Positions 43,951-63,622 are shown, numbered from the stretch's first letter. The stretch: DNA of 64,000 nucleotides from Methyloprofundus sp. (GCF_965251085.1 NZ_OZ252594.1:1545859-1609858); one strand, 5' to 3'. Notes: generated from the letters alone by a model not told the origin. Numbers and translations are program-made.

Positions 43951-44041
43951 TAAGCTGTATATTACCAAGAAAGCTTGGCTTGGTGAAAGACTAAGTGAAT
44001 TAAAATTTAGCTCACTAAAACTTTAATAGCAAACAATAGCA

Positions 44042-45858: not shown

Positions 45859-48800
45859 ATGAAAATTTCTGATCAACAGTGGCAATTCTGGATCGACCGA
45901 GGCGGTACTTTTACTGATATAGTCGCGCGTAGACCAGATGGTCAGTTAATCAGCCATAAGCTACTTTCGGAAAATCCGCAACACTATCAGGATGCAACAC
46001 TGCAGGGTATAAATGAGTTGCTAGCTCAGGATGTTAAGCAGCCGTCTAAAAAAATTTCAACGATAAAAATGGGCACCACGGTGGGCACTAATGCCTTATT
46101 AGAGCGTCAGGGTGAACCCACTGTATTATTGATTACTCAGGGTTTTAAAGATTGCTTGCGCATTGCCTATCAGAATCGCCCTGATATTTTTGCCTTAAAT
46201 ATACAATTACCTGAATTGCTATATCAGGAGGTCATTGAAATTGAAGAACGGCTGAATGCGCAGGGTGAAGTATTAACCCCTTTAAATACACTGCATGCAG
46301 AACAACAACTACAGGCAGTCTATCAACATGGCCTGCGTAGCGTAGCTATCGTCTTAATGCATGCCTGGGCATACCCTGAGCATGAATTGCAATTGGCCGC
46401 ATTAGCTAAGCAAATAGGTTTTACGCAAATCTCGGTTTCACATCAAGTCAGTCCCTTTATAAAAATTGTTAGCCGTGGCGATACGACTGTGGTGGATGCT
46501 TATTTATCACCCTTATTACGACGTTATGTAGAGCAAGTTAGCAATGGTTTACAGCAATATTCAGAGCACTCTAATGATGCAATTCAGCTGTTGTTTATGC
46601 AGTCAAATGGTGGTTTAACAGATGCAAACAGCTTTCAGGGCAAAGATAGTATTTTATCCGGACCTGCAGGTGGCATAGTCGGCGCTATTGCTACAGCAGA
46701 GCAGGCTGGCTTTAGTAAAATTATCGCCTTTGATATGGGTGGAACCTCAACCGATGTCGCGCATTATGCAGGTAAGCTAGAACGCAGTTTTGAAACTGAA
46801 GTTGCCGGGGTAAGAATGCGTGTGCCCATGATGAATATACATACCGTAGCTGCGGGTGGGGGATCTGTGTTATTTTTTGATGGCATGCGTTATCGGGTTG
46901 GGCCTGATTCTGCGGGTGCAAATCCAGGGCCTGCCAGTTATCGCAGGGGCGGGCCTTTAACAGTTACGGACGCCAACTTGTTGTTAGGTAAGTTACCGGT
47001 GTTTCCGGCCGTATTTGGCGAGAATGCAGATTTATCTCTAGATATCGATAGAGTAAAACAGCTGTTTGCTGAATTAGCAGAGCAGATCCAGCTTGCAACT
47101 GATGTGCAGAAGAGCCCACAGCAAGTAGCTGAAGGCTTTATAAGTATTGCCATTGAAAATATGGCTAATGCAATCAAGAAAATCTCGGTACAAAAAGGCT
47201 ATAACGTCGCTGAATATACTTTATGCTGCTATGGCGCTGCAGGTGGGCAACATGCCTGTAAAGTAGCTGATAGACTTGGTATGCAACAGGTTATGTTGCA
47301 TCCTTTTGCTGGTGTGTTATCGGCTTATGGCATGGGGCTAGCTGATTATAGATTATTAAAGGATAAAGCCTTAGAACAAGCCTGGGATGAAGTGAGTTAC
47401 ACTCAACTGGAAGACTTGTTTGCAGCATTGCGAGATCTAGGCAAGCAGGAAATGCTGGAGCAATCTCCTAAACTTCAATCGATAGAGTTTATCGCCTCTT
47501 TACACTTGCGTTACTTAGGAACAGATACAGCCTTAGTTGTAGCCTTTGCAGATAAACAATTGATGCAGTGCGCATTTGAACAGGCTTATCGAAAGCAGTT
47601 CGGTTTTGTGTATCAAGATAAACCACTGATTATTGAGTCGATCAGTCTGGAAGTCATCGCCAAAAACGAATCGCCTATACAAGTATCTTTATTAAATAAT
47701 AGTCAGCAAGAACAAAACGCTAGTGCCTTTATGCACACCCGCATGTTTAGTAATAATGCGTATCATGCAACGCCCGTCTACCAACGCAATGAACTTGCAA
47801 TAGGTCAGATCATTCAGGGTGCAGCTATCATTATCGAAGCGACCGCAACTACAATTATTGAACCAGACTGGCAAGCGCAGGTGAGTGTGCACGGTAACCT
47901 GATTTTAACGCGGTATTGTCCAATACAAGGGCAGGTTGCTATTGGGACTACGGTGGATCCGGTAATGCTGGAGATATTTAATAAATTATTTATGTCGATT
48001 GCCGAACAAATGGGCTTCGTGCTGCAAAATACGGCCTATTCGGTGAACATTAAAGAGCGCCTGGATTTTTCCTGTGCGCTGTTTAATGCGCAGGGCGAGC
48101 TTATTGCCAATGCCCCGCATATACCGGTGCATTTAGGGTCTATGGGAGAAAGCGTGCTGTCCTTATTGAATAACCAGGCAGTCAATATTCAGGCTGATGG
48201 GGTGTATTTAATTAATTCACCTTATCATGGTGGCACGCATTTGCCGGATATTACCGTGGTAACGCCTGTCTTCGAACAGCAGCAACTATTGTTTTTTGTC
48301 GCATCCAGGGGGCATCATGCTGATGTGGGCGGTATTAGCCCGGGCTCTATGCCGGCACATAGCCAAAGTATAGTTGAAGAAGGGGTTATCAGCGCGGGCA
48401 TGCCTATCGTTATCAATGGTGAGTTTCAGGAACAACTGATTCGCGAGTGGTTATCTTCAAGCAGCCACCCAGCACGTAATATAGAGCAAAATATCGCTGA
48501 TTTGCAGGCGCAAATTGCAGCAAATAATAAAGGCCGTCAAGAACTAGAGCAAATGGTTGCACATTACTCACTGGTAACCGTTTTGAGTTATATGCAGCAT
48601 GTGCAAAATAATGCGGCAGAATCGGTACGCCAAATACTGGGAACTTTAAGTAATGGGTGTTTTACAAATGTTATGGACAACGGCGCTAAGATCGTGGTGT
48701 CCATTGCGATTAATCAACAACAAAGAAGCGCAACCATTAACTTTACCGGTACCAGCGCACAATTAAAGAGTAACTTTAATGCACCCGCTGCAGTGTGCAA

Positions 48801-49473
48801 GGCTGCGGTTTTATATGTATTTCGTACCTTAGTTAAAGATGACATCCCACTCAATGCAGGTTGTCTGCAACCTTTGAATATCATAATTCCAGAAAATTCC
48901 ATGTTAAACCCTCAGTATCCGGCAGCCGTTGTCGCAGGTAATGTTGAAACTTCACAATATATTGTTGATTGTCTATATGGCGCTTTAGGTATACTCGCCA
49001 GCTCGCAGGGAACGATGAATAACCTCACCTTTGGCAATCAGGAATATCAATATTATGAAACGATTTGTGGTGGCGCAGGGGCAGGCGAGAATTTTGATGG
49101 TTGTGATGCCGTGCATACACATATGACCAATTCGAGAATTACTGATCCTGAAGTGTTAGAGTGGCGCTTTCCGGTAATCCTGGAAGAATTTTCAATTCGC
49201 GCAAATAGTGGTGGGCCAGGTAGGTATAAAGGAGGGAATGGCGTTGTCCGGAAAATTAAATTTTTAAAGCCAATGACTGTTAGCCTGTTATCCAGTCACC
49301 GATTAAAACCTGGCTTTGGATTACAAGGGGGTATGGGCGGGAGTACAGGGGAAAACACTGTACTTCGATTTGAAGGGGAGGTAGTAGCATTAGCAGGTTG
49401 TGCGGAAGTTAACATGCAGCCAGGCGATAGTTTGATTGTTAAAACACCCGGTGGTGGCGGGTTTGGAAATTAA
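45859..49473 (+). CDS. 5-oxoprolinase (fused hydantoinase A/B)
   Basis: 1204 aa; [37 protein letters not shown] and TPGGGGFG motifs. Confidence 0.93.
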
Positions 49474-49484
49474 ACATAATAATT

Positions 49485-49740
49485 GTGCCTTTGGAATTTA
49501 ATGATGAACGATCCGTGACTCAGTTTTTCCTGGTTCCCTATTTTGACGCCTGTATTCATGTGCTTCCACCGCCGTCCAATCAAATCATTTTTGTCAGTTA
49601 TCCAAATGGACTGAAGCTTGATTCATTGTATGATCCGTTCTGGATTTCAGACATTTTGAAAACCTCTGTTGTCAAGAATGAAACAGCAACAGCCTCCTAC
49701 GCCATGCAGATGCAGTCTTATGAAATTTATACGGAAGAGT
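49485..49740 (+). pseudogene. DUF3299-family 3' remnant
   Basis: PLEFNDERSVTQFFLVPYFDACIHVLPPPSNQIIFV...LYDPFW matches the family's CIHVPPPPPNQ region; 5' half missing. Confidence 0.75.
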
Positions 49741-49744
49741 GTTG

Positions 49745-50752
49745 TCAACTGACGATACAGCCCATTAATTGATCTTCCAATGAGTCATCCAGAGATTCAG
49801 ATATGATTTCAATCCGGCTTTCCATGCACTCGTCCAGCACGAATTCGGTTAAGGCGTCAGCGGTCAGATTGTAGGCAAACACTCCCTTGTCGGTGATAAA
49901 TACCGCTTTCATTCTTTCAGCGTTGATGCCGTTTAACAAATCGAACAGCTTTTTGTGTTCAAACACATGCCTGGGGGAAAAGCGCCAGCCTATGCTTTGA
50001 AAGCCTTCGCCTTGGTTGTGCGCTTTAATATAACCAGAGTCCGGGAAAGGCTGTTCGGATATTAGGGGTTTTTGCTGCGTTGCATGATGGTGATGAGCAT
50101 CTGCAATAGCTGCAACAGCCGCTGTGGCGCCTTCTAATTCTGTAGGTGATATTTGCCCGTTCTGGGTAAAAATCACCCGGCTTTTAGGGGGTGCATATAG
50201 CGCAAAATATTCTTCAAGCATAGGCTTGTCAATATCCCGGTACAAGTCCGTTTTATTACCGATCACAATATCTGCAATGGCAATCTGCTGTTTAAAGGTT
50301 TCATGTGTTGTATAACGTGGGTCGGACAGTTTGCGTGCATCGACCAAAGTCAGAATTTTTTGTAAAGACAATACCTCCCGGTAGTGTTCGGCAGACAGAA
50401 CCTGCAAAACTTCTTCGGGATGACCCAGCCCCGTCGGTTCAATCAGCAAGCGATCCGGTTTTGCCCGGGTCAACAATTCGTTTAAGGCAATTTGCATCGG
50501 TAAACCAGCGGCACAACACATGCAACCGCCCGGTACTTCACGAATAAAGACGCCTTCCTCATTTGCGTGTTGCCCCTCAAACAAACTACCATCCACGCCA
50601 ATCTCGCCAAATTCATTGACCAGCACCGCCCAGCGCTGGTCAGACGGTTTGTTATTAAGTAAATGTAAAATGGCAGTGGTTTTCCCGACACCTAAAAAAC
50701 CGGTGATAATATTGGTGGGAACCGCGTTAATGTTTTTTGATTTAGTCTTCAT
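49745..50752 (-). CDS. COG0523/CobW-family Zn metallochaperone GTPase (YeiR-like)
   Basis: GFLGVGKTT, NEFGE, GCMCC, EPTGLG and NKTD motifs; His cluster AHHHH. Confidence 0.9.
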   Translation of the reverse strand: MKTKSKNINAVPTNIITGFLGVGKTTAILHLLNNKPSDQRWAVLVNEFGEIGVDGSLFEGQHANEEGVFIREVPGGCMCCAAGLPMQIALNELLTRAKPDRLLIEPTGLGHPEEVLQVLSAEHYREVLSLQKILTLVDARKLSDPRYTTHETFKQQIAIADIVIGNKTDLYRDIDKPMLEEYFALYAPPKSRVIFTQNGQISPTELEGATAAVAAIADAHHHHATQQKPLISEQPFPDSGYIKAHNQGEGFQSIGWRFSPRHVFEHKKLFDLLNGINAERMKAVFITDKGVFAYNLTADALTEFVLDECMESRIEIISESLDDSLEDQLMGCIVS

Positions 50753-50764
50753 TGTTGATGTTTA

Positions 50765-51223
50765 TTATTTATGGGTATTTTTTTCATCAGGATAAGGGAC
50801 TTTTTTAGCCTGAGTCTTGATGGAAATTTGTTGTTTTTCGACATCGACCTTGAGATAAAAACAATCCGCACGACCTGTATGACAGGCGGCGCCAGTCTGG
50901 TCGACCTGACAGAGTATCGCGTCACCATCACAATCGAAAGACATCGAGACAAGGGCTTGAACGTGCCCACTTGTTTCACCTTTTTTCCATAATCGCTCTC
51001 GGCTTCGAGACCAATAGGTCATGCGTTGAGTCGATATCGTCAGGAGAAGCGCTTGTTTATTCATCCAGGCTAACATAAGCACTGTTTTGCTAGCGGCATC
51101 CTGGGTGATAACTGGAATCAACCCTGCCTCGTTATAGGCAAGTTTGTCGATGATCTTATTGAGTTCAAGCGGTGGGTCACTAGGTGCCTTTTGCTCAAGA
51201 CTTTTAAAATAATCACGCAGCAT
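50765..51223 (-). CDS. hisI: Phosphoribosyl-AMP cyclohydrolase (likely Zur-regulon paralog)
   Basis: YWSRSR..LWKKGETSGH, DCDGD and ACHTGRADCF motifs; start at MLRDYF. Confidence 0.88.
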   Translation of the reverse strand: MLRDYFKSLEQKAPSDPPLELNKIIDKLAYNEAGLIPVITQDAASKTVLMLAWMNKQALLLTISTQRMTYWSRSRERLWKKGETSGHVQALVSMSFDCDGDAILCQVDQTGAACHTGRADCFYLKVDVEKQQISIKTQAKKVPYPDEKNTHK

Positions 51224-51227
51224 TGGC

Positions 51228-51632
51228 TTAGTGATGATCCGGGCAAGCGCAATCCAGCTGTCGGCAGAGGCGAAAATTCCAAAAATGTCCTGCCGCAACA
51301 AAACTGGCGCCTATTACCGTCAAGATTTTTTCTCCAGATTCCCCGATGATTTCTTCACCTAACATCACAGCCAGAACAAGCAGCGCGAGCCCCGTGCCTC
51401 CCACAATAAGTAAACGGAAGTGTTTATGCCGTTCACATCCCATGCTTAAGGCGTAGATGCTAGTCGGTATGACAGCCAATAGCATCCAGTAATGAAACGC
51501 TTCGTTATCAAGTTGCAAAGCCGCCATGCTTGGCAGTAACGCCAACATGACTGGCACAGCCAGACAATGAACCGCGCATAGCAATGATAAACTGATCGAT
51601 AATTTATCCGTGATTTTCTGTGTTGTTTCCAC
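51228..51632 (-). CDS. MerC-domain membrane protein
   Basis: DKLSISLSLLCAVHCL, four TM segments, C-terminal CACPDHH. Confidence 0.82.
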   Translation of the reverse strand: METTQKITDKLSISLSLLCAVHCLAVPVMLALLPSMAALQLDNEAFHYWMLLAVIPTSIYALSMGCERHKHFRLLIVGGTGLALLVLAVMLGEEIIGESGEKILTVIGASFVAAGHFWNFRLCRQLDCACPDHH

Positions 51633-51644
51633 TTTTGTGACCTC

Positions 51645-51802
51645 TTATCCCCTTAAATTTATTATTCTGTTTTCAGCGTCCAGTGTTTTACCACCTTGTT
51701 GTTTTCAGTGATCCATAGGGCATGAACTTGATGAATGCCTGGAAATACATCAAACTGGGCAACAGTTATTGAAGACAAGGTTGCCAGGCTTTCATAGCGA
51801 TA
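51645..51802 (-). pseudogene. ZrgA/DUF2796-like 3' remnant
   Basis: Hand translation YRYESLATLSSITVAQFDVFPGIHQVHALWITE / KQQGGKTLDAENRIINLRG*, with one frameshift. Confidence 0.6.
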
Positions 51803-51984
51803 GTCTGAGCTAGCCCAGTCAGTTTATTAATGACGACACCATCCTGCACTACCATCTGGCCATTTTTAAACAGCAGGGCGGCATCGGCAATAATAATGCC
51901 GTCCTGAATGAACAGGTTGCCAATGTCGCCATGACAATTCAGGTCTGGATCGTATATCGAACCGTTTTCAAGTTTGATTAGCAT
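51803..51984 (-). pseudogene. FhcA/FwdA-like amidohydrolase remnant (N- and C-terminal ends fused)
   Basis: MLIKLENGSIYDP...LFIQDGIII joined to LLFKNGQMVVQDGVVI; catalytic core deleted. Confidence 0.6.
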
Positions 51985-51997
51985 AGATTGTTAGGCC

Positions 51998-52114
51998 TTA
52001 ATTCATAAAATCCAGAGTTAACAGCAATCGCCTTTCACCTTCGTTTATAGCAGGTGAGCGGTGAACCAGCCCGGCATTTTCATTGCCCTCCCAACGTTCG
52101 CCTTTCAATAGTGC
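51998..52114 (-). pseudogene. DUF1826-family 3' remnant
   Basis: Hand translation ALLKGERWEGNENAGLVHRSPAINEGERRLLLTLDFMN*; cut by an IS66 end. Confidence 0.75.
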
Positions 52115-52315
52115 GTAAGCGCTCAATAGTCAGCGTACTTCACGGCAACTCAGATTAATGCCAAACTATCCCCATTGTTAAATACCACGGGGAATTTTAA
52201 ATGGCAGCGTTAGAAAAAATACAGGCAAAGACTTTCTGGCCTATTCACATAGAGCACTGGCAGGCATCAGGCCAATCACAGGTAGCTTATTGTCGACAGC
52301 ATGATTTATGTCCGC
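52115..52315 (+). mobile_element. IS66 left end plus truncated tnpA (orfA)
   Basis: gtaagcgctcaa terminus; [25 protein letters not shown]. Confidence 0.75.
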
Positions 52316-53008
52316 AATTGAACAGTCCAGTGCCCAGTACCGCATCAATATCCACATGCCCCTGTGTAATCGGCAGGATTTGTGCATCATATTCAGCGTT
52401 TTCAATATAGCGGTCAAGCGTTCGATGTCGGCAGAACTAACCAGATCGGCTTTGCTGATCAGGATGACATCTGCAAATTCCACCTGATCGACCAGTAAAT
52501 CCGAGACACTACGCTCATCGTCTTCACCTAGTGATTCACCGCTTTCCTGTAGGGAGTGTGCGGCTTCGTAATCGTTTAAAAAATTAACAGCATCGACAAC
52601 AGTGACCATGGTGTCCAGCGTTGCAATATCGGATAAAGACACGCCATTTTCATCTGTAAAAGTGAAGGTTTCTGCAACCGGAAGTGGCTCTGATATGCCC
52701 GTTGATTCAATAAGCAAATAATCAAAGCGACCGTCTTTTGTCAGTTTGCTGACTTCGAGTAACAGGTCCTCACGTAAAGTACAGCAAATACAGCCATTGC
52801 TCATTTCTACTAATTTTTCTTCACTGCGATTGAGTGATATTTCACTTTGCACAATCGAGGCATCAATATTGATTTCGCTCATGTCATTGACAATGACTGC
52901 GACTTTTTTGTTTTGTCTGTTATTCAGGATATGACTGAGTACAGTGGTTTTTCCAGCACCCAGAAACCCTGAAAGTACGGTAACGGGTAGTCCTTTTGTT
53001 TTTTCCAT
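52316..53008 (-). pseudogene. ZigA-type COG0523 GTPase, truncated and frameshifted
   Basis: [26 protein letters not shown] and ESTGISEP motifs; frameshift at LKTLN; CobW_C domain missing. Confidence 0.85.
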
Positions 53009-53116
53009 AGAAAATCTCGCAACATAAGTGCATGAGCGTGGCAGGCGCGTCTTCGAGCATAAGTCTAAGAGACTGGCGTGCCACACATCATAATTAAATA
53101 GTTATTGATCAGTGTG

Positions 53117-53141
53117 GCCCTTTTATTCACTATAAAAGGGC
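53117..53141. terminator. Hairpin, possible terminator
   Basis: Perfect 10-bp stem gcccttttat / ataaaagggc with a 5-nt loop. Confidence 0.45.
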
Positions 53142-53149
53142 TTGATACA

Positions 53150-53313
53150 TATACTTCGCGCGGCCACGACTGCGGATTTCTAACAGCTGAGTTTTTGCCG
53201 ATAGCTGTGTTTCTGAAACAGTTGCGTAGCCGGCTATGCGCCTGTTTCAGCGCCTTGCTTTTGACAAAAATCAGCGCGTTATAAATTCCGCATCCGTAAC
53301 CGCGCGAAGTATA
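53150..53313. mobile_element. MITE family A copy (no hairpin module)
   Basis: tatacttcgcgcggccacg...cgtaaccgcgcgaagtata. Confidence 0.82.
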
Positions 53314-53355
53314 GTTTGAGCTCTGTTTTTTTGTGCAAAGTTCAAGAAATAACAG

Positions 53356-54159
53356 TTATTGTTCGTGAGCATGTTCGTCATCATCCTCAACTTCATGAGC
53401 TTCACTTAATTGAAACAGGAAATTGCCCTGATCATTTAATTGGATTGTGTAGTGTTTACCGAATGCTTCAACTTCCGGAATGGATAAAATACCGGTTATA
53501 TCGTCATATTCTGCACCTTCATGTGCGCCTTCATGTGCGTCTTCCAAGGCTTCAACCGCATGTTCAAATTCTGCTTCAGCTAATCCTTGATTAAAAACAA
53601 TCACCACAGGTTTTGCAGCATAAGAAACCGATAGTTCACTGTTGGCTGCAGATTCAAATAGTTTGAGTTCTATCCGGTAAGCACCTTGGCTGCCACTTAG
53701 AGTATTGCTGGCATCTTGTAGAGAAAAATCGATATGGGTATGTAACCCGCCGTCGGCTTCAAATTCACCAATCACGGCTAAATTGTTGGAAATGTCATGT
53801 CCATCAATACGAATAGTTTGATCCAGCGCATCCACTATATTGATGTGTTCACCATTAGGCATTGAAGTCGTCCATTCGTCACCGTCCCAGAATTGTAAGG
53901 GGGCAACAGCCTGGAATTGCAACCAATTATCTGGATTAAAGGCGCCTTTTTCAATGTTGACATCTATTCCGGGGTCATCCGTTGCAAAAGGGCCGCCGCC
54001 CAAATCGCCTAGGTCAACTTCGAATAATTGACTGTTGAGAAAAATTTCGGCACCTTGACGCCAAGGTTGCAAATCGCCTGCATGTAAATGGTCGTCTGCA
54101 GCAAAAGCAGGAAAGCTGAATGCTACCAACAAAGATGGAATGATCGCTTTTTTTAACAT
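53356..54159 (-). CDS. Secreted His-rich putative metal-binding protein
   Basis: Signal peptide (AFA|ADD), DDHLHAGD, TDDPG, GLHTHIDF; His/acidic tail AHEVEDDDEHAHEQ. Confidence 0.8.
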   Translation of the reverse strand: MLKKAIIPSLLVAFSFPAFAADDHLHAGDLQPWRQGAEIFLNSQLFEVDLGDLGGGPFATDDPGIDVNIEKGAFNPDNWLQFQAVAPLQFWDGDEWTTSMPNGEHINIVDALDQTIRIDGHDISNNLAVIGEFEADGGLHTHIDFSLQDASNTLSGSQGAYRIELKLFESAANSELSVSYAAKPVVIVFNQGLAEAEFEHAVEALEDAHEGAHEGAEYDDITGILSIPEVEAFGKHYTIQLNDQGNFLFQLSEAHEVEDDDEHAHEQ

Positions 54160-54708
54160 AGTGTTTTTTCCTTAATAATTAAGTAAATGTTCTATTTTTT
54201 TAATGGCTTCCAAACGGAAGTTAAAATCGCCAATATTTCGCAAAGTGACACGGTGATATTGGTTGTTTACTGATAACACAGGTATTTCAAGTAAACCTTT
54301 ACTGGCTTTATAATGCGTAGGAAAGGTAGGGCAACTCGCAACAAATAACCCGCCCCCATCTTGCTAGTCTTTTTGTCCGTCTTCAGTGTTGTAGAAATAG
54401 CTACGTAGCTGGCTATGTGCCTATTTCTACGCCCCCGTATCCAGTACGGGGCAGGCTTTGAAGACAAACAAAAATCCTGCGCAATATAGGTGGTTTTTTT
54501 ATTGCGTGTTACCTAGGGTAGTTCGATAGTGTTTTCTCCTTATTAATTAAGTAAATGGTCTATTTTTTTAATGGTTTCCAAACGGAAGTTAAAATCGCCA
54601 ATATTTCGCAAAGTGACACGGTAATATTGCTTGTCTACCGATAACACAGGTATTTCAAGTAAGCCGTTACTGGCTTTATAATACGCTGGAAAGGCATAGG
54701 GTAGTTCG
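54158..54708. repeat. Tandem ~183-bp duplication of the upstream gene's 3' end plus intergenic sequence
   Basis: 54158-54525 (with a MITE inside) and 54526-54708 share atagtgtttt...ggtagttcg at roughly 90% by eye. Confidence 0.8.
54330..54513. mobile_element. MITE family B copy with hairpin module, TAG duplication
   Basis: ggcaactcgcaacaaataacc / ggttttttattgcgtgttacc flanked by TAG. Confidence 0.8.
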
Positions 54709-55910
54709 GCCGGAACAGCCGATTGCAGAGTGAAAATATTATCTTCTGATTGCTGTAATATAGTCCGGTATTGCTGGCTATCGATCCGAACGTCATTTAA
54801 TATCAATTGCTTCTCGGTACTCTCAAATACGGCAACTTTTTGGATGAGTTCAGCTTGTACGGCACTGGGTATTTGACACAACCTTAAACTACATAAGCTT
54901 TTTGCTAAATGGGAATCCTGACGCGTAATCAGGCCATCATTGTCGACATCAAACATCACATTTTCGGCTTGCACAGCATCTTGATTTTGTGCAGCCAATA
55001 AAATTAAAGCCACATCGAGTCGGTCCACATCGCCATCCAAATCAACATCCCCTAGAATGGAAAGAGGAAAAACCGGATTTTCTGGCACAGAGCCGGGTTG
55101 ACCATTACCATTTGTCTGATCAATTAAGCTCAATAGCGCGTTTGAAAATTGATTGTCATCCAAACCGGCATTAAACAGTATTAAAAAGGGTTCACTGGAT
55201 ATAGGGCGGGCATTCGAGAATGCTTGAATTTCAATGAGATAAGCACCGGCTGGACCGCCTAAATCGCCCTGCTGATTTTCCAGAAAAAAACTCAAATGGG
55301 TGTGTAAAATACCTGACTCACTGGTGATGTCGATGACCATTTCTTTACTTCCTGAAACACCTTGAGCGGAAAAAAGGGTGTTACTTTCTGTACTAAAATT
55401 ATCCGCATTAAAACAAAGCAATTGTCCTGCGCAGGCATTGTAATCCGTTGATAGCCCTGCGCTGGCCTCTAAGCCACCATAAACAGCAATACGAACATCC
55501 GGCGGAGCCTGAACCCAAGTAGATATAGCGGGATCCCAATAGCGTAAATGGCCTAAAGCACGATAACTGATTAATTCATTGGGCAATAAAGCACTTTGAA
55601 TGGATTGAAAACCTGGGTTTTTGGTTTTAAATTGTCCACCTGACAAATCCTGAAAATCGGTCAGAAAAATAAATTTACCGGTGGCTGCTTCAACCGGTAA
55701 AACATTGGCTGGTAAAGAAAAATGTTCAAGCAAGCCATCTGTGTCGCAACCCACTACGCCAGGGGTTCGGCAATAGCCAGCAAATAAGGTGTCGTCTTCC
55801 CCCCAGATTTCAACATCCAGATGGATGGCTGCAGCAATAGAGGGAAAAATGAACATCACGGTAAAGCAAAAATACCGGGTGATTTTGATAATTAAAGTGT
55901 TTTTTATCAT
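54543..55910 (-). CDS. Secreted protein: paralogous HTH-motif domain, dockerin/EF-hand-like pair and two C-terminal repeats
   Basis: IHLD, TKNPGF, GILHTHLSF; LGDVDLDGDVDRLD and FDVDNDGLITRQD; start taken at MIKNT. Confidence 0.78.
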   Translation of the reverse strand: MIKNTLIIKITRYFCFTVMFIFPSIAAAIHLDVEIWGEDDTLFAGYCRTPGVVGCDTDGLLEHFSLPANVLPVEAATGKFIFLTDFQDLSGGQFKTKNPGFQSIQSALLPNELISYRALGHLRYWDPAISTWVQAPPDVRIAVYGGLEASAGLSTDYNACAGQLLCFNADNFSTESNTLFSAQGVSGSKEMVIDITSESGILHTHLSFFLENQQGDLGGPAGAYLIEIQAFSNARPISSEPFLILFNAGLDDNQFSNALLSLIDQTNGNGQPGSVPENPVFPLSILGDVDLDGDVDRLDVALILLAAQNQDAVQAENVMFDVDNDGLITRQDSHLAKSLCSLRLCQIPSAVQAELIQKVAVFESTEKQLILNDVRIDSQQYRTILQQSEDNIFTLQSAVPAELPYAFPAYYKASNGLLEIPVLSVDKQYYRVTLRNIGDFNFRLETIKKIDHLLN

Positions 55911-55935
55911 GTTTAATTTAAAATAATCATTCAGG

Positions 55936-58128
55936 TTAGTAACTGGCTCGAAAACCAAAGACAAAGCTTTGTCCCGGTTCCGGCGCATAATTTCTTAGAA
56001 AAGACACGGAATTGCGTATTTCTTCGTTCAATAAATTGTTGGCTTTGGCAAACAACCATAATTCAATTTTTTCAGTGATATCCAGGTGGTAATCAACACT
56101 GGCACTTAACAAGTTATAGCCAGACGTTTCTGATTCAAATGCGCCACTATGGTCTTGTGCTTCGCTGCGTGAATAACGTAAGTTTGCATTCCAGATGTGT
56201 TGACCGAGACCTAGTTCTGCGCCATAACGCAGAGGAGGAATGCGCGGCACATCATCCGTTTTGAAACGCGCGCGGACATAATCGGAAAACAGCGTGAGTG
56301 ATAGATTGGCGTAGGATGATTCATAAAGTGGCATACTCACTTCTGCTTCATAACCAAAAAACTCAGCATTTTGTTGATTATAGGCATATATCGGAACACA
56401 TCCTGCTTCACTGACACAGCGTTGACGAATCACTTCATTATCGATTTCGTAGAAAACCCCGGTGTTTTGTTGATAAATATAATCGTCTATCCGGTTATAA
56501 AATCCGTTTAATTTGAAAGACAGCCCATCGGATTGCCAATCCACGCCTAAATCAATGCGTTTCATGGTTTCGTTTTCTAAAGCGACATTGCCAATATCAA
56601 AGGTTCGGGTTGATAAATGGGGACCAAATGATAACAGTTCCTGAATATCCGGTGAGCGCTGTCCATAGTTGAATGACAAGTTGACATTGGCTTCTGGTAT
56701 GAAATTCCAACGTATGGAAAACGCGCCAGATACAGCGTCATAGCTTAGTTTATCGGGCAATGAAACCGGTGGCAATGCGCTGCCTCGTAAACGCAGCGTT
56801 GTGGCATTGGGATCGATGTATGTTTGTTCATAACGGACACCACCGGTGATGACCCAGTCTTTCCAAGAGTAATTTTGAGTGGTGAAGATTCCCCAGGACT
56901 GTTTTTGCGTTTCCGGCACAAAGGTTTCAATACCCAACGCAGAAAAATCCTGGTCGACCCATTGCACGCCAGTACTGCCCGTAAAACCTTCACCAAAATG
57001 ATGATCTATTTCAAATCGACCTTCACCGGTATCATTACTCACTAATGTAAACAGTGATCCACCTTCGTTTTCTGTATGCTGATAATCAACGTAAGCGTAT
57101 TGAAACCGTATGTTATCAATACCTTCCACAGGATCGTACCACTCGCCTTTAAAGTCATAACGTATGTTTTGCATGGCGATACGGATATTCGGAAACAACG
57201 CTTGTGATCCAAGAATATCCTCAAATCCTTTTATGTCATCCAGTTGCGGCAGAATGAACTCCAGTCCATCCAGATGATTAGGATCTAAGCCGTGACTGCC
57301 CTTAGGAATACCGTATTGGTTTTCGGTGTAACTGACCGACATACCGGCCATCGCTTGCTCACCTAACCAGGAAGCACCGCCAAAGCCGCCGTAACTTTTG
57401 CTATCGCTATTAGGGATAGTGCCTTCAGCATTATTGAAATCAGTTAAATCAAATTGTTGGGTAATAAAGTCGGTGTCAATCGCTAGGCCAGGAATTTGTG
57501 TATCGTTGCGATGCCGATGAAAACCACCCATGGTCAATCCTAACCAGTCTTTTTCCAGATTGACTCTAAAGGCAGAATTCGTACCTTCTCCATTGGTATC
57601 ATAGCGGCTTTCAAGCCAACCACTTAGGAGCTGATCCATGCGTTGTTCAGGAATGCGATAGTCTTTGACTTCAACAATTCCGCCAATGGCATTGCCGCCA
57701 TAACGAATGCTTTCTGATCCAAGTGAAATGCGAATGCTTTCCGCAAAAATCGGTTCTATGGCTACCGCATGATCAGGACTCAAGCTGGAAGCATCATGAC
57801 TACCCAAACCGTTTTGTAATATGCGTATACGTGATCCGGTTAAACCACGAATAACAGGAACGCCCACACCTTGGCCAAATGAAGCGTTGCTGACCCCTAA
57901 CTCCGTTTCCAATAATTTACCTAAGGTATCACTTTGTTTTAATCGTAAAGAATCCCCCTGCAATAAGTTTGTCTGAGAAGATTGCGGGTCGCTGATGGGG
58001 GCGCTAAGGATTTCCATTGCTTCCAAATCTATTGGCTGCGCAAAAGACTTTGAGACAATTCCAAACATGCCTAACAAGACCATATACCGAGTTATATTGA
58101 TTAAGTTAATAAAAAATGAAGCTTTCAT
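55936..58128 (-). CDS. TonB-dependent receptor, ZnuD-like
   Basis: Plug PVIRGL...RIRILQNG, SPDHAVAIEP and IRYGGNAIGG; C-terminal aromatic residue (RASY). Confidence 0.88.
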   Translation of the reverse strand: MKASFFINLINITRYMVLLGMFGIVSKSFAQPIDLEAMEILSAPISDPQSSQTNLLQGDSLRLKQSDTLGKLLETELGVSNASFGQGVGVPVIRGLTGSRIRILQNGLGSHDASSLSPDHAVAIEPIFAESIRISLGSESIRYGGNAIGGIVEVKDYRIPEQRMDQLLSGWLESRYDTNGEGTNSAFRVNLEKDWLGLTMGGFHRHRNDTQIPGLAIDTDFITQQFDLTDFNNAEGTIPNSDSKSYGGFGGASWLGEQAMAGMSVSYTENQYGIPKGSHGLDPNHLDGLEFILPQLDDIKGFEDILGSQALFPNIRIAMQNIRYDFKGEWYDPVEGIDNIRFQYAYVDYQHTENEGGSLFTLVSNDTGEGRFEIDHHFGEGFTGSTGVQWVDQDFSALGIETFVPETQKQSWGIFTTQNYSWKDWVITGGVRYEQTYIDPNATTLRLRGSALPPVSLPDKLSYDAVSGAFSIRWNFIPEANVNLSFNYGQRSPDIQELLSFGPHLSTRTFDIGNVALENETMKRIDLGVDWQSDGLSFKLNGFYNRIDDYIYQQNTGVFYEIDNEVIRQRCVSEAGCVPIYAYNQQNAEFFGYEAEVSMPLYESSYANLSLTLFSDYVRARFKTDDVPRIPPLRYGAELGLGQHIWNANLRYSRSEAQDHSGAFESETSGYNLLSASVDYHLDITEKIELWLFAKANNLLNEEIRNSVSFLRNYAPEPGQSFVFGFRASY

Positions 58129-58242
58129 TTTAGGGTCAGTTTGGATTCAAAATATGAACCCTGAGCGGGTAGTGATGAGCAATATTTACTCGTAACCAAG
58201 GCATGTTGTATCCTAACGTCCATTACAAATTTTCTTTCCTTG

Positions 58243-58734
58243 TTACGAAACACAATTGACACAAATCCCCTGAATTTCAATGGTTTTTATATGAGAGATA
58301 AAACTCGATTGTTGTAGTTCAGTGGTAACCGTCTTACTCATATTGCTTCCAGTCTGCTCCTCAACTTCATGACATTGGGTACAAATTAAAAGCACACATT
58401 CATAGTTGCAGTGTCCTTGGTTACAGGCAATGAATGCATTGAGACTTTCTACTTTATGAATAAAACCTTCCTTCAATAGAAAGTCCAATGCACGATAAAC
58501 GGTCGCAGGTTTTGCATTTTTAAAATCGGATTTAATGTCTTCCAACAAATCATAGGCTTTAACTGCATGATGACTTTGACACATTAATTGAAGAATTTGT
58601 TTTCGAATGGCTGTCAATCGAACTCCCTGTTTTTTACAATGATTTTCAGCGGATTGTAAAGCCGATTTGCACGCACAATCATGATCAACTACATGATCGG
58701 AAGGTGGGTTATCTGTCTTATTCATTGGAATCAT
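58243..58734 (-). CDS. zur: Fur-family zinc uptake regulator
   Basis: RLTAIRKQIL, KAYDLL, KPATVYRALDFL, HKVESLNAFIAC and two CxxC motifs. Confidence 0.85.
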   Translation of the reverse strand: MIPMNKTDNPPSDHVVDHDCACKSALQSAENHCKKQGVRLTAIRKQILQLMCQSHHAVKAYDLLEDIKSDFKNAKPATVYRALDFLLKEGFIHKVESLNAFIACNQGHCNYECVLLICTQCHEVEEQTGSNMSKTVTTELQQSSFISHIKTIEIQGICVNCVS

Positions 58735-58752
58735 ATTGTTAAATTAATGTTT

Positions 58753-58772
58753 TGTTATAACATAACATTATA
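58753..58772 (-). promoter_or_regulatory. Zur-box-like palindrome overlapping a TATAAT -10
   Basis: tgttataacataaca (consensus core TGTTATAnTATAACA); minus-strand TATAAT at 58767-58772. Confidence 0.7.
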
Positions 58773-58773
58773 A

Positions 58774-60467
58774 CCTAAATCCTGCAAGCCCATATTTTGA
58801 CTCTCATTAACCTGTCTAGCTAAGTGGTTATTAGGTTTTTACTGCCGCTTTGCCAGCCCTCTTTGTCCAACCGATCAAAATATCCAGATTTAAATCATAA
58901 ATAGAGGAAATTTTTTGTATCGTATGGATATCCCCCGAGCCCAAGGCAATAAACACCCTGCCAACGTGCCATGACCTTTTAATCAAAGTGACTTAACTTC
59001 GGTTAATGTTAAGCGAGTAACCCCACCTTAACCCAATCATCCCATTCCTGTGGATAGAGCGGACCTGCAGGTGTTCTGACTCTCAGCTGATTATTGCCTG
59101 TGAGTAATTTTCCAGCCACCCGAATCAGATAAGTACGAAGTGTATCCGGCTCCCATTGGCACAACGTTTTGTTGCCACTCAATTGAGCCATCCAGCGCAC
59201 GGTATTGTAGGCAAGAACGGCGCAATGAAATAATGCGGCATTAGCCAGAAATTGATTCGTTCTGATTTTACCTAAACCCATTTGTGATTTTGCTTCTTCA
59301 ATCCATGTTTCGCACGTCGCTCGTTCACCATACTTCTTATGTGTTTGCCAAGGCGATAGAGGTTCAGTTGTTACATAACAAAAATAGTCATATTCTGCCG
59401 TATCCCAAAGCTCGGACTGAGGTCCTGTCACTTGTTTAGGTTGCTTTATCCTGACCGCGACAAACTGACGAGAGCGAGACCAGCCACCACAACGATATTG
59501 AAACTCGCTCTGCTCCCAACCGGGTCGGCCTTGTATGGCTGTCCAGGCCTGTTTGGCCAGCAATGCGTTCAAATTCTTAAGTTTAACCTTTATTAGATAC
59601 CCATGCCCTCTGGTATCGAGAAATTCAAGCAAATCACCGACAAAATAACCACTGTCACCGCGAAAAATAATGCGCATCCGATTGGGCAAGTGTGCAAGTA
59701 ACTGTTTGGTAAATTCTACAACACCATTGCTTGTAAAGGCATTGCCTGTCCGGAACCAGGCTTGTAAAATTTCTTTTGTTTCCGCTAGAAAAGCGAGTTG
59801 TGGATGGTATGAACGGGCACCTTTCTTTTTGGGGTTGAAGCCTTTGGCACTTCCTTCTTGTCGACCACAAACGGTGTCCACAGTTGAATCGACATCGACC
59901 CACTGGACGGATTGTATGCCAGTTTTCGATTTTCCGGAACGAAGCAATCGCCGCCAGTGTTGACCACGCAAAGTATGCGTGAGCGTTTCAAACTGGCTTA
60001 TCTGCCTATCACTTACTTCTTTAAAGATCCGTAAAATTGTGGTTTCAACAGGAATCTTTATCCAGCCAGCTACTTTGCGCAGTACGCTATCTGCCCATAC
60101 GGTCGTCACCTTTGCCATTGATGTTGCTCCCCCCATCATGCCAACCAACGTCAATAGAACCACATCAGATAAGTGATGGTCTGCATTTTCACCCCGCCGA
60201 TGTGGAACGCTTTGTTTTACGGTTTTTTCAAAACCTATCCTGTCTAAATATTTCACGACGGGAATCAGTCCCGCCTGGCTTGTCAATCCATGTGCTGTAG
60301 ATGTCATTTTTACCGTTCGGGTACGGTTTCTTACGTGAGATGAGGATTTTGATACTTTAGAGGGCTTCATTAAAACAATGAGATAGTGAAATCAGGAAAA
60401 TGATATTATATCATTGTTTAATAAGGAGTTTTGTGGATTATTATGTATAATGCTTGCAGGATTTAGG
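58774..60467 (-). mobile_element. IS1380-family element, copy 4
   Basis: Same TIRs, 1694 bp, TSD tataa at 58769-58773 and 60468-60472. Confidence 0.95.
59009..60370 (-). CDS. IS1380-family transposase
   Basis: 453 aa; GPLYPQ variant. Confidence 0.92.
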   Translation of the reverse strand: MKPSKVSKSSSHVRNRTRTVKMTSTAHGLTSQAGLIPVVKYLDRIGFEKTVKQSVPHRRGENADHHLSDVVLLTLVGMMGGATSMAKVTTVWADSVLRKVAGWIKIPVETTILRIFKEVSDRQISQFETLTHTLRGQHWRRLLRSGKSKTGIQSVQWVDVDSTVDTVCGRQEGSAKGFNPKKKGARSYHPQLAFLAETKEILQAWFRTGNAFTSNGVVEFTKQLLAHLPNRMRIIFRGDSGYFVGDLLEFLDTRGHGYLIKVKLKNLNALLAKQAWTAIQGRPGWEQSEFQYRCGGWSRSRQFVAVRIKQPKQVTGPQSELWDTAEYDYFCYVTTEPLSPWQTHKKYGERATCETWIEEAKSQMGLGKIRTNQFLANAALFHCAVLAYNTVRWMAQLSGNKTLCQWEPDTLRTYLIRVAGKLLTGNNQLRVRTPAGPLYPQEWDDWVKVGLLA

Positions 60468-60497
60468 TATAATTGAAATTTAACAAATGTTGTAAAT

Positions 60498-60534
60498 GGG
60501 GTTTGAAGTCCAACGTTACGAAAAGTCCCGCTAG
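60498..60534. mobile_element. Tn3-family terminal inverted repeat
   Basis: ggggtttgaagtccaacgttacgaaaagtcccgctag fits the GGGG...ACGAAAA...TAAG 38-bp pattern with one base missing. Confidence 0.7.
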
Positions 60535-60814
60535 CTTCTAGGTCTTTTGTGCATAAATTCGATATTTTTCGCTTAACGCACTGTAAACCTTACAATACGC
60601 ACTCTACAGAGGTACTACGTTTTTACGAAGCTTAGCTCCACTTCTCCTCCGTAATTTACGGCTGCAAAAAATCGCCTTAAATTTTGATATATTATGCTTC
60701 TAAATGAATTTTTCTAGCTAGGCTGAGAAATCATGCTGTTTTCAGAGTCAGCAAAGGAATAAAATGCTGAAAAATTGATATGAAACCAAGCTACAGGCGA
60801 TATTCGCTTTAACC

Positions 60815-61825
60815 CTCTAGATTTGCCGAACGCCCTTCGTGCCATTGAATTCTTTTAGTTCTGAGAGAATTTGAGCGTTATAGTGAATAACACAATTTGC
60901 AATCAAACGCGCGCACTCATTCCAGAGTGTTAACTCTGCATGATGACTACCCCTGAATTTCTTACCGTAAGTTTCAGCTAATACACGCCTTAACTGGTGT
61001 AATGATTAGCCTCGATTGAGAGCGCGTTGAACATGCCAATGAAGTGTTTCACTATCAATATAATCCAGTATGTATAGCGCTTTTATTGCTCTGTCATATT
61101 CCGCCAAAGCCTTAAGGCTAGAGGTATTCATGATGGGTTCTAATATGCACGGTGTTCGATTTATACCGGCACAACTTCTTGATTAATACACTTTGACTGG
61201 TTTTGTGCTGCCCTAGTGAAATCATCAATCGACAAATATCCTCCCATTCCCTTGTAATTAGCTCCCAATCAATCGGAATCCTCAAAGAGATCAGCTACTC
61301 GACATCTTTAGATTTCTCGACCTGAAACATTTTCTCAAAATGATCTTTGAAGGTTTTGTATAGTGGCGCAAATTGATAACTAAAAAGTGGAGTATGGCAA
61401 AATTATATCTATTTGCCCCATGGGTATCTCTCGACAAAATATCAGGTTTAACTTCAGAAGTGTTGTTATAGAGTAAATCAAAAATGTGATGTCTTTCGTG
61501 GCCATCTGCACTAATGGTTTTGCTATTTTCCGGTATGTGGATGAGCACTAATGTCACAGCTGATACTTCTTTTTCTTGGCCGAAGTATTTTGGCTAATAC
61601 CTCGCAATTAATGAACTAAAACGACATTCAAACTTCTGCCCATTAATACTACCGTGCTAACCGCGCTCATCTATTTGGTAGTACTCGAATATTGGTAAAA
61701 AGGCTGTCTTGTTTGAAATTAAGTCGTTTGTAGCTCTCAAAATCTCTAGGCGCAAGTAACTAGCCAGTGTGGCTCGTAAATCATTGAATGAACGATCAGA
61801 AATGTTAGTTATTTGTATAAACCGA
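60815..61825 (-). pseudogene. Tn3-family transposase, degraded 3' part
   Basis: FDLLYNNTSEVKPDILSRDTHG; hand translation VQRALNRG..LHQLRR...WNECARLIANCVIHYN; many stops. Confidence 0.8.
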
Positions 61826-61831
61826 AATTAG

Positions 61832-62339
61832 TGTTGATTGTCTATATGGCGCTTTAGGTATACTCGCCAGCTCGCAGGGAACCATGAATAATCTCACCTT
61901 TGGCAATCAGGAATATCAGTATTGTTAAACGATTTTTGGAGGCACAGGAGCAGGCGAGAATTTTGATGGTTGTGATGCCGTGCATACACATATGATCAAT
62001 TCGATAATCACTGATCCTGAAGTGTTAGAGTGACGTTTTCCGGTAGTCCTGGAAGAATTTTCAATTCGCGCAAATAGTAGTGGGCCAGGTAGATATAAAG
62101 GAGGGAATGGCGTTATCCGAAAAATTAGCTTTTTAAAGCCGATAACTGTTAGCCTGTTATCCAGTCACCGTATAAAACCAGGCTTTGGATTTGCGGGAGT
62201 ACAGGGGAAAACACTGTACTTCGATTCGAGAGGGAGATAGTGGAATTAGCAGGTTGTGCGGAAGTTAACATGCAGCCAGGCGATAGTTTGATTGTTAAAA
62301 CACCCGGTGGTGGAGGGTATGGAAAACAAACATAATAAT
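61832..62339 (+). pseudogene. Degenerate duplicate of the 5-oxoprolinase 3' end (48963..49483)
   Basis: Roughly 90% identical by eye; in-frame stops and a ~12-bp deletion; both copies end at aaacataataat. Confidence 0.9.
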
Positions 62340-62418
62340 GTAGAATTATCTATATTTTAATTATCCTAGAAAATCAGTTGAGCGCGAATTTATAATGCAA
62401 GATATTGAATTAATTAAA

Positions 62419-62463
62419 TATCCACGTTCTAAGAACGTGGTTTTATGGCACCCTAGAAGGGTG
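62419..62463. repeat. Two short hairpins resembling IS200/IS605-type ends
   Basis: ccacgttctaagaacgtgg and caccctagaagggtg. Confidence 0.35.
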
Positions 62464-62706
62464 TTTTTAGCATCGTTGGTGTTCAAAAAATCGGGTGGAG
62501 TGAATAGCTTCAGTGCGGAAAAATCTAAGGCTTTTGTAACTACTCAGCGTATCTGAGTAGTTACAAATTATTATAGAAAGGAATAGAGGGAATTATTAAG
62601 TACTGAAAAAACGGGATACATTATTTGTACAAAAAAATCAGATGTTATTATTAGTGGTTAAAATTTTAGTTTTTATGTCCTAAAGAGTGTCGTCACATTA
62701 ACATTA

Positions 62707-63162
62707 TTATTTTAACAAATCTTTTATTAAAATAACTTCCATATCATCAGTTGAGCGAATACCTTTATCATTGGTAATAAAAAACTGACAACCGGATTTT
62801 ATGGCTGTTGCATAATGTAGAGCATCTGCAAACTTCATTTTATATTTGGCACGAATTTGAGAAGATAGATCAAATGTATCTGCATTATGTGATGCTATTG
62901 AAAGAAAATTATCTGCAAAAAAGAATGCTTTAAAAGTAGATATGAGTGAAAGGTTATTGAGCTGATAAGGTTTAACAAGAGCTTCTGCAACGGTTAAGTC
63001 ACCGGTAAAAGCAAAAAATTTTCCTTGTTCAACGGCTTCTAAAATGTCGGCAGAAATAGGAAAAAATTCTGTATTTTGATCAAGAAAGTAGATAAACAAG
63101 TTTGTATCAATATACACAGATTGCCCTGCAATTTTATCAATGTGTTGCTTTATTTTTCCCAT
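62707..63162 (-). CDS. PIN-domain (VapC-like) toxin
   Basis: YIDTNLFIY, AEALV, DALHYATA and FITNDK motifs. Confidence 0.88.
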   Translation of the reverse strand: MGKIKQHIDKIAGQSVYIDTNLFIYFLDQNTEFFPISADILEAVEQGKFFAFTGDLTVAEALVKPYQLNNLSLISTFKAFFFADNFLSIASHNADTFDLSSQIRAKYKMKFADALHYATAIKSGCQFFITNDKGIRSTDDMEVILIKDLLK

Positions 63163-63419
63163 GACTCTCTTTCATTAGTAATAAAATGATCAATATCTTC
63201 AGCTGTTTTCCCCCACATTCCTTTTGCTATACCAGCATAAGAAAGAATAGATTTTTTATTTTCTAAGCGTTTAACTGGCGTTAAGGTTACGATTCCATTA
63301 ATAAGATTAACATTCACTTTATCTTCAGTGTGTATTTTCCAGGCATGTAAGATTTCAGAGGGTATTGTAATTTGTCCTTTGGGGCGAATTTTTACCATAG
63401 GCATATGAGTTGTCTCCAT
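63150..63419 (-). CDS. AbrB/MazE-type antitoxin
   Basis: KGQITIP motif; overlaps the PIN gene start. Confidence 0.85.
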   Translation of the reverse strand: METTHMPMVKIRPKGQITIPSEILHAWKIHTEDKVNVNLINGIVTLTPVKRLENKKSILSYAGIAKGMWGKTAEDIDHFITNERESWEK

Positions 63420-63420
63420 A

Positions 63421-63455
63421 AGTAGGAAGTAAGAAAAATAAAACTATTTCCTACT
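63421..63455. promoter_or_regulatory. Inverted repeat upstream of the TA operon (possible autoregulatory operator)
   Basis: agtaggaa...ttcctact. Confidence 0.45.
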
Positions 63456-63489
63456 AAGTATATTATTTTTTACTAATAAGTCAAAAATA

Positions 63490-63622
63490 ATGAAAGAAAA
63501 ATCCCAAAATTTGGGAATAAATAATATTTATTCTACTGAAAAATTAGAACTTTTTAGAAAACTGGAAGATGATGTTGAAAATGGAATTTATACTCCTATT
63601 TCAAAAGAAAGGTTAGATGAAC
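63490..63622 (+). pseudogene. Small ORF truncated by IS66
   Basis: MKEKSQNLGINNIYSTEKLELFRKLEDDVENGIYTPISKERLDE runs into the IS66 terminus. Confidence 0.45.

Follow-up and report, generated by a model that had tools for sequence, protein, structure and literature searches.

A duplicated oxoprolinase 3' end brackets a degraded zinc-starvation cluster in Methyloprofundus and may be the scar of an old duplicative insertion

The 3' end of an oxoprolinase gene occurs twice in a stretch of 64,000 nucleotides (nt) from the genome of Methyloprofundus sp. (GCF_965251085.1 NZ_OZ252594.1:1545859-1609858; one strand, referred to here as the window), and the two copies stand on either side of a cluster of zinc-related genes. 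How did a fragment of a core gene come to bracket an accessory cluster, and could that cluster still leave? The genus, which is named Methyloprofundus in the source records, includes the methanotrophic gill symbionts of Bathymodiolus. A sequence-only reading of the window had proposed that a circular DNA carrying an oxoprolinase fragment integrated by a single crossover and that the repeats could still allow its excision. Our analysis leans, with modest confidence, toward a different answer, in which a single illegitimate insertion, made long ago, duplicated its target and left the downstream copy as a scar, and nothing marks the locus as a mobile island today. Coordinates are those of the window unless stated otherwise, and genome-wide statements refer to the 4.94-Mb single-contig genome that contains it (G000).

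The oxoprolinase/hydantoinase A+B fusion gene (45859-49473, plus strand) is intact and encodes a protein of 1204 amino acids (aa) with full-length Pfam matches to Hydant_A_N, Hydantoinase_A, Hydant_A_C, and Hydantoinase_B; its product is 85 to 86% identical at the aa level to the syntenic orthologues of two related genomes, G016 and G018. The final 511 nt of this gene together with 10 nt of 3' flank make up repeat copy A (48963-49483, plus strand), which pairwise alignment matched to copy B (61832-62339, plus strand), a pseudogenized oxoprolinase 3' end whose reading frame is interrupted by two in-frame stops and by a frameshift, with a 13-bp deletion. The repeat search returned two direct blocks (48960-49259/61829-62128 and 49337-49483/62193-62339), each at 93% identity and with offsets 13 bp apart, and the alignment carried the homology from about 48962/61831 to 49483/62339 as a single repeat unit, with both copies terminating in the motif AAACATAATAAT. 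By hand count, A and B differ by 37 substitutions over 508 aligned bases in addition to the deletion in B. The recurrence, the shared orientation and end motif, and the damage to the second copy that the sequence-only reading had described were all borne out. The closest sequence to B is A (about 93% by substitution count, or 90% by BLAST with the gap counted), and no oxoprolinase sequence beyond these two was found in the whole genome by six-frame search and BLAST. Among 27 species of the genus, no B-like oxoprolinase 3' end exceeded 77% nt identity, and no closer oxoprolinase relative with an empty site or a B-like gene was found, the best protein outside the gene's own cluster being 87% identical (aa).

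We considered whether the second copy could be an assembly artefact, a possibility that the sequence-only reading had itself raised, or a chance similarity. The genome is repetitive, and nothing further speaks for such an explanation, whereas 508 aligned bases at 93% identity speak against it. Exact-protein look-ups in ENA metagenome assemblies recovered the layout of the window in two contigs (L040, ERZ25072740; L056, ERZ26859052, 389 kb) and a variant strain of the same species in a third (L039/L041, ERZ26273167, a 172-kb contig at 457x). The joint between A and the inserted segment (J1) is base-identical in two of these independent assemblies (L039 and L040), and L056 matches in gene layout. 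B, with the joints on its upstream (J2) and downstream (J3) sides, differs from the window by 1 nt in the 457x assembly (L039). Given that the same junctions recur in three independent metagenome assemblies, the second copy is no assembly artefact, and we regard an artefact or a coincidence as virtually out of the question.

The pattern of differences between the copies bears on the history of B. When these differences were polarized with five outgroups, 21 were derived in B, 9 were derived in A, and 7 were ambiguous. The B-derived changes were spread 6:4:11 over codon positions 1:2:3 (approximate chi-square p ~0.16) and included sites that are invariant across all outgroups; the changes in A were fewer, as expected under selection. 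Taken over all A/B differences, the spread was 10:7:20 (approximate chi-square p ~0.02). The decay of B fits neutrality and would be consistent with a copy that has been non-functional since the split. Its branch, of about 4 to 5.5%, is at least 20-fold deeper than the divergence (≤0.3%) among most copies of a 1.7-kb insertion sequence (IS) that has expanded in this genome, and at least 20-fold deeper than the between-strain difference of about 0.1%; it is similar to the divergence of a neighboring Tn3 remnant from its nearest intact copy (7.6%). The duplication event is far older than the IS expansion.

The ends of the inserted segment are cut through genes. At J1 (49482-49486), placed by alignment with copy B and with the intact DUF3299 gene of metagenome contig L053, the oxoprolinase 3' flank runs directly into a 238-aa DUF3299 gene at codon ~144. 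In L053, the intact 238-aa gene is followed by a divergent ABC ATPase and an FtsX permease, and its homology to the window (93.5% nt) stops at 49482. The joint reads ...TTTATTGTACC in L053, ...AATAATTGTGCC in the window, and ...AATAATGTAGAA in B, with 2 to 5 bp of microhomology (AT as the strict overlap, or ATTGT/AATGT if one indel is allowed). At J2 (61831-61832), the interior of a Tn3 transposase gene (tnpA) is joined to oxoprolinase codon ~1035 with 1 nt of microhomology (T). An intact tnpA of at least 901 aa in G010 (contig C386) matches the Tn3 remnant at 92.4% identity, and this homology ends exactly at 61831; copy B thus adjoins an internal part of tnpA, and no transposon end lies at the joint. 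The sole Tn3 terminal repeats, read from the sequence at 60499-60578, point away from the zinc cluster, which is therefore no Tn3 cargo. J1 and J2 are thus illegitimate microhomology joints. A Tn3 transposon with passenger genes was rejected on the grounds that there is one end only, facing away, and that tnpA is cut at J2 by comparison with G010. The other origin offered by the sequence-only reading, an old duplication linked to the Tn3 remnant, is right in a loose sense only, as B adjoins the remnant at a breakpoint inside tnpA and not at a Tn3 end.

In the relatives, oxoprolinase has another downstream neighbor. In G016 and G018, lpd-sucB-sucA and oxoprolinase are divergently oriented, oxoprolinase is followed by a DASS symporter gene, and the zinc clusters are at other loci, in agreement with the earlier view of the zinc cluster as an insert at the oxoprolinase locus. 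In G000, the block DASS-cytc-thiE-thiD-glgA-glgB lies 260 kb away behind thiL-pgpA (genome positions 1331540-1339151), and this displacement places a synteny break right after oxoprolinase. In G010 (L019, contig C7), the oxoprolinase end is beside cytc-thiE-thiD-glgA-glgB; the symporter has been lost there and oxoprolinase survives as fragments only. The alignment of relatives by which an empty site was to be recognized did not yield one: no relative with the sequence from 62340 onward after oxoprolinase was found, the DASS symporter occupying that place in G016 and G018. Likewise, no circle, empty site, or insert-free strain was found in four assemblies or in the 27 species, and exact-pattern scans for the oxoprolinase 3' end returned 0 matches each in metagenome and genome contig collections. 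On the insertion reading, the sequence that follows B at J3 is where the oxoprolinase 3' flank natively continued.

Between the copies, Pfam scans identified only zinc-related genes or mobile DNA, as had been claimed, with FUR, cobW (two genes), TonB_dep_Rec/Plug, PRA-CH, MerC, and DUF3299 as the domain content. The segment starts, as also noticed earlier, in mid-gene, with a 5'-truncated DUF3299 remnant of 95 codons (49485-49772, plus strand) that matches PF11736 positions 57/59-137 of 139 and is the sole DUF3299 match in the genome. The genes that follow are on the minus strand: a COG0523/CobW-type GTPase (no. 2, cobW#2; 49745-50752; Pfam cobW), a HisI-like PRA-CH paralogue with a MerC-like membrane protein (50765-51632; PF01502, PF03203), in an order kept in G001, G034, and L054, and an amidohydrolase remnant (51766-51984) that retains 72 codons of ~560 aa by comparison with the full-length genes of G001 and G034 and by a tblastn match. 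The left 203 bp of an IS66-family element (52115-52317, plus strand) separate this remnant from a second COG0523/CobW gene (no. 1, cobW#1; 52318-53086, minus strand; Pfam), whose C-terminus has been deleted and which is near full-length (241 + 158 aa) in L041. Further along the minus strand are genes for two secreted proteins (267 aa and 481 aa) and a TonB-dependent receptor (53356-58128; Pfam), with orthologues in the same order in G018 and G016, and a Zur-like regulator of the Fur family (58243-58734; Pfam FUR), which has an orthologous position in G018 (contig C89). A recent copy of the 1.7-kb IS, the second at this locus (58773-60468, minus strand), lies between zur and the Tn3 end, and the segment closes with the Tn3-family remnant (60499-61831, minus strand; Pfam DDE_Tnp_Tn3), which consists of two Tn3-like terminal repeats and the decayed C-terminal ~390 codons of tnpA.

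By its gene content, the cluster would be of the Zur-regulon, zinc-starvation type. Genes that are missing or broken in comparison with close relatives show that it is substantially degraded here: DUF3299 is truncated, the amidohydrolase and one COG0523 gene are broken, an IS sits on the promoter side of zur, and the ABC transporter, ZIP, DUF1826, and ZrgA genes have been lost. B, the truncated DUF3299 gene, the amidohydrolase remnant, and cobW#1 are pseudogenes. Relatives carry a ZrgA-family gene, ZIP, DUF1826, a full amidohydrolase, and DUF3299-ABC-FtsX (L053, 3725-5243; L063 of G034, 10832-11419). The statement that no integrase is visible held up, given that Pfam scans of the tested open reading frames in 49485-63999 contained no tyrosine or serine recombinase; there was no tRNA gene in 40000-64000, and the flanking repeats are 0.5 kb of coding sequence, unlike att sites.

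Where did the inserted DNA come from? The order of the cluster in the window is typical of the genus and not exotic. G001 has DUF3299'-cobW#2-hisI-merC-amidohydrolase-DUF1826-(ZIP remnant)-cobW#1, G018 has zur-receptor-461aa-264aa-cobW#1-ZIP-DUF1826-amidohydrolase, and similar orders occur in G016, G034, and L053-L055. The genes of the cluster do not follow the phylogeny of their hosts. For sucA, identity to G000 is 92% in G018 and G031, 91% in G016, 85% in G001, and 81% in G034, whereas for cobW#2/hisI/merC, it is 85-86/85/77% in G034 (cobW#2 at 85% by BLASTP and 86% in the genus search) against 70/69/69% in G001. For cobW#1, G001 and G018 are 95% identical and G016 and G018 only 70%, even though sucA of G016 and G018 is 95% identical. 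The distribution is patchy, with cobW#2 orthologues in just 2 other species of the 27, and the nearest cobW#2 homologues (94, 92, and 88% identical; L053 at 94% aa) are on contigs with other flanks. Copies of the cluster with 92 to 95% DNA identity occur in at least four flanking contexts, and these flanks have no DNA match in G000. Given this discordant phylogeny and the near-identical copies in other contexts, the cluster is a horizontally exchanged accessory module of the genus that lacks its own mobility genes. The genome yielded no further copy of the cluster, DUF3299, or the Tn3 element, nor the missing 5' half of DUF3299 or any other Tn3 piece that could mark a donor site. With no source copy in the genome and a discordant phylogeny, the inserted DNA most likely came from another strain. 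At 43.0%, the GC content of the insert is normal (41.8% for the genome), and in tetranucleotide distance the insert ranks at the 97th percentile of 9-kb windows. The flanks of L053-L055 were compared with G000 as a clue to whether these contigs belong to sister species; they have no DNA match here, and a sucA candidate came from a different metagenome-assembled genome. In G001 (L037, contig C20, 1-7330), the zinc cluster lies 3' of tRNA-Phe and beside argG. The corresponding tRNA-Phe/argG locus of G000 (genome positions 713000-715000) contained no zinc-cluster remnants and carries a transposase, a hipBA-like pair, and the soluble methane monooxygenase operon.

The locus has been reshaped since the repeat formed. 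The 1.7-kb IS encodes a 453-aa DDE_Tnp_1_4 transposase (Pfam) and has 96 full-length copies in the genome at 97.9 to 100% identity, nearly all at or above 99.7%, which indicates a recent and massive expansion; many partial copies are present as well. Four of the copies are in the window (1636-3337, 32347-34042, 44034-45736, and 58773-60468). The one between sucA and oxoprolinase (44034-45736, plus strand) is absent at its site in L039, and the one at 58773 is missing from L041, in which positions 60468 and 58773 are joined with 5 bp of overlap; both are therefore very recent insertions. A composite transposon was rejected, as these two copies are inverted, lie outside the bounds of the repeat unit, and are absent in L039/L041.

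The IS66 elements record the orientation in which they found the repeat. A second IS66-family element (63623-64000, minus strand, continuing to 66098 beyond the end of the window) has an intact 8-bp target duplication, AGATGAAC, on both of its sides, and the end of the plus-strand remnant at 52115 is preceded by its flanking sequence, AATAGTGC. In the variant strain (L039, 16257-18731; L041, 8906-11380), a complete IS66 stands where the window keeps only the first 203 bp, and the segment from cobW#1 to the toxin-antitoxin genes vapBC, B included, is inverted and ends at an inverted IS66 beside parDE-trpS. The inverted segment corresponds to 52318-63622 of the window, about 11.3 kb, and measures about 10.7 kb in the variant, which is without the 1.7-kb IS and has an extra 1055 bp; A and B are inverted repeats there. 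The partners of the target duplications are swapped in the variant, in which they read AATAGTGC...GTTCATCT and GCACTATT...AGATGAAC. Given that the duplications pair only in the orientation of the window, the IS66 elements inserted into a window-type arrangement, and the direct orientation of A and B is ancestral; the variant arose by recombination between the two IS66 copies. The same pairing led us to reject a staggered-break inversion in which the inverted form is primary. Each IS66 copy has its own target duplication, unlike the ends of a composite transposon. In the strain of the window, a later deletion with 8 bp of microhomology took out the interior of the plus-strand IS66 and 1055 bp of cluster sequence, namely the C-terminus of cobW#1 and fragments of DUF1826. 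The direct-repeat structure, with the same oxoprolinase segment before and after the insert, predates the IS66 insertions, the inversion, and the deletion.

The repeat, its microhomology joints, the decay of B, the relative ages, the ancestral orientation, and the gene order of the relatives are established by the sequences; the history of the locus assembled from them adds, by inference, a single event, its mechanism, and the foreign origin of the insert. The ancestor would have had sucA and oxoprolinase in divergent orientation, followed by the native 3' flank of oxoprolinase. About 14 to 15 kb of DNA would then have been joined directly behind the oxoprolinase stop codon, comprising the Zur-regulon cluster from DUF3299 to zur and a Tn3-family element at the zur end, with one breakpoint within DUF3299 and the other within tnpA. 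Both sides of the insert would have been left with the final 521 bp of the target, the upstream copy staying in the working gene and the downstream copy, non-functional since the split, drifting neutrally. One route could be a replicative event with two template switches, in which a 3' end abandons its template right behind oxoprolinase, is extended along the foreign cluster between mid-DUF3299 and mid-tnpA, and returns to a point 521 bp upstream. Another could be single-crossover integration of a circularized fragment that already held both joints. The two routes give the same final topology, and the sequence cannot separate them. Remodeling would have followed with the two IS66 insertions, the inversion between them in one strain, the deletion in this strain that took 1 kb of the cluster and the greater part of one IS66, and, latest, the two very recent 1.7-kb IS insertions.

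Several points weigh against this history. The codon-position test has low power with 21 changes, and B could have been a functional allele in a close relative for part of its history. With an insert only mildly atypical in composition, the case for its foreign origin depends on identity comparisons of a few single genes. The ancestral break between oxoprolinase and the DASS symporter falls within a few bases of J1 and J3, which hints that the break, the insertion, and the duplication, whether together or stepwise, made up a more complex episode. No pre-insertion site or donor arrangement was found, and the count of one event rests on parsimony. The circle of the sequence-only reading, in which 0.5 kb of oxoprolinase and the zinc cluster entered by a single homologous (Campbell) crossover and form an excisable island without an integrase, has the exact topology in its favor: direct repeats bracket the insert, and their direct orientation is ancestral. 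It also gains from the horizontal exchange of the cluster, found at 92 to 95% DNA identity in four or more settings, and from the fact that the genome has no source copy. A and B still share identical runs of 69, 51, and 46 bp, which is enough for RecA-type recombination, and residual recombination between the copies is conceivable. However, such a circle must itself already hold the J1 and J2 joints, which makes two illegitimate events plus one crossover, and neither the circle nor an empty site or insert-free strain turned up in the four assemblies. The present divergence of about 7% and the 13-bp gap impair recombination, the repeats are inverted in one natural strain, where a crossover would invert the segment and not excise it, and the decay of B fits a copy that was never functional. 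The proposed regeneration of the gene with displacement of its old 3' end shares the same topology, but this is equally what a replicative, target-duplicating insertion produces, and the codon-position and polarity counts of B fit a copy that was non-functional from the split better than a displaced allele with an earlier function. We hold this version possible but doubtful. Its stronger form, in which a recombinase-free cluster travels between strains with a fragment of a chromosomal gene, entering by single crossover after uptake (e.g., by transformation) and leaving the same way, seems to us quite improbable; if true, it would be a natural "insertion-duplication" island, and the differing flanks of the 92 to 95% identical copies would be the footprints of its moves.

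B might alternatively be what is left of a once complete second oxoprolinase, either a segmental duplicate or a xenologue that came with the Tn3/zinc region, whose 5' 3.1 kb was lost to a deletion with one end within tnpA and the other within the gene. J2 does look like a deletion-type joint of two truncated genes, the genome is highly rearranged (96 IS copies, IS66 elements, miniature inverted-repeat transposable elements [MITEs]) and has 21 to 22 other diverged two-copy repeats no more than 60 kb apart, and the third-position excess of the full A/B comparison (10:7:20, approximate p ~0.02) allows for some divergence under selection. This explanation needs more junctions, however (the left end of the duplicate, J3, and then J2), and leaves unexplained why the A/B homology ends at the same base, 10 nt past the stop codon. 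Nothing else of a duplicated sucA-oxoprolinase segment was found in the genome, and no B-like functional gene was found in the sampled lineages. We consider it unlikely, more so than the circle. A tandem duplication followed by a deletion was rejected as unparsimonious, for the endpoint of the deletion must match the J1 base exactly.

A few neighboring features complete the description of the locus. Directly 3' of B lies a MITE/REP-like repeat (62342-62570) with a core of ~60 bp, about 158 copies in the genome, and occurrences in other species of the genus; in some cases the repeat reaches ~225 bp, with a hairpin-like second module (62532-62567). It is followed by the VapC (PIN)/VapB-like toxin-antitoxin pair (62707-63419, minus strand; Pfam PIN, MazE_antitoxin). 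The two Tn3-type terminal repeats are 38 bp each (60499-60536 and 60541-60578) and stand in tandem, in the same orientation and 4 bp apart, which suggests that a Tn3-family element landed close to the end of another, on its inner side; before the IS insertion, they lay ~60 bp upstream of the zur start. Within the cluster, a 169-nt direct repeat at 92% identity (54158-54326/54526-54694) links the 3' end of the 481-aa gene and the 5' side of the 267-aa gene, with a REP-type element (54355-54514) between its copies, and may be a shared protein module or a local duplication. The other two-copy repeats of the genome, at 21 to 22 places and no more than 60 kb apart, measure 250 to 1250 bp at 85 to 98% identity (for example, 333841/350292, 816964/830866, and 4780122/4782324 in genome positions) and may be paralogues or further rearrangement scars.

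The insertion that we favor combines known processes in a new instance and represents no new kind of mobile element or mechanism. As in Campbell integration, the basis of laboratory insertion-duplication with suicide plasmids or circular donors, a direct duplication brackets heterologous DNA, and the upstream copy completes the gene while the downstream copy is a truncated fragment. In contrast to that process, no circular form, replication or integration functions, or empty site was observed here, the fragment is bounded by microhomology joints to truncated genes, the copies are 7% diverged, and the event is ancient and apparently fixed in all four assemblies. The two joints of 1 to 5 bp, the ends that cut genes, the duplication of the target at the insertion point, and the lack of a transposase or integrase signature resemble template switching of the FoSTeS/MMBIR type and homology-facilitated illegitimate recombination as foreign DNA is taken up, although here the mechanism is read from the scar alone. 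A duplicated target of 521 bp with an insert of more than 10 kb is large compared with most described bacterial template-switch cases. The variant strain parallels IS-mediated inversion between inverted IS copies in that its segment is flipped and 8-bp target duplications are exchanged; that inversion was a later, separate event and did not create the oxoprolinase repeat. With integrase-type genomic islands, the locus shares a patchy distribution and a phylogeny discordant with core genes but not a recombinase in the Pfam scans, a tRNA, or att-type repeats. Zur-regulated zinc-starvation clusters, with their COG0523 GTPases, TonB-dependent zinc receptors, zinc-independent or back-up paralogues such as HisI, and DUF3299/ZrgA-type ABC uptake genes, are matched in the Fur-family regulator, the two COG0523 genes, the TonB-dependent receptor, PRA-CH, MerC, DUF3299, and the amidohydrolase remnant, although the cluster in the window is partly degraded.

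In summary, our analysis presents a clean, datable case in which an accessory metal-starvation cluster appears to have been placed beside a core gene by illegitimate recombination, without an integrase or a transposase. The locus also shows how IS66 and an expanded 1.7-kb IS go on to reshape such a segment by insertion, inversion polymorphism, and deletion. Collectively, these findings are useful for annotating the pseudogenes of this genome and bear on genome plasticity in Methyloprofundus.

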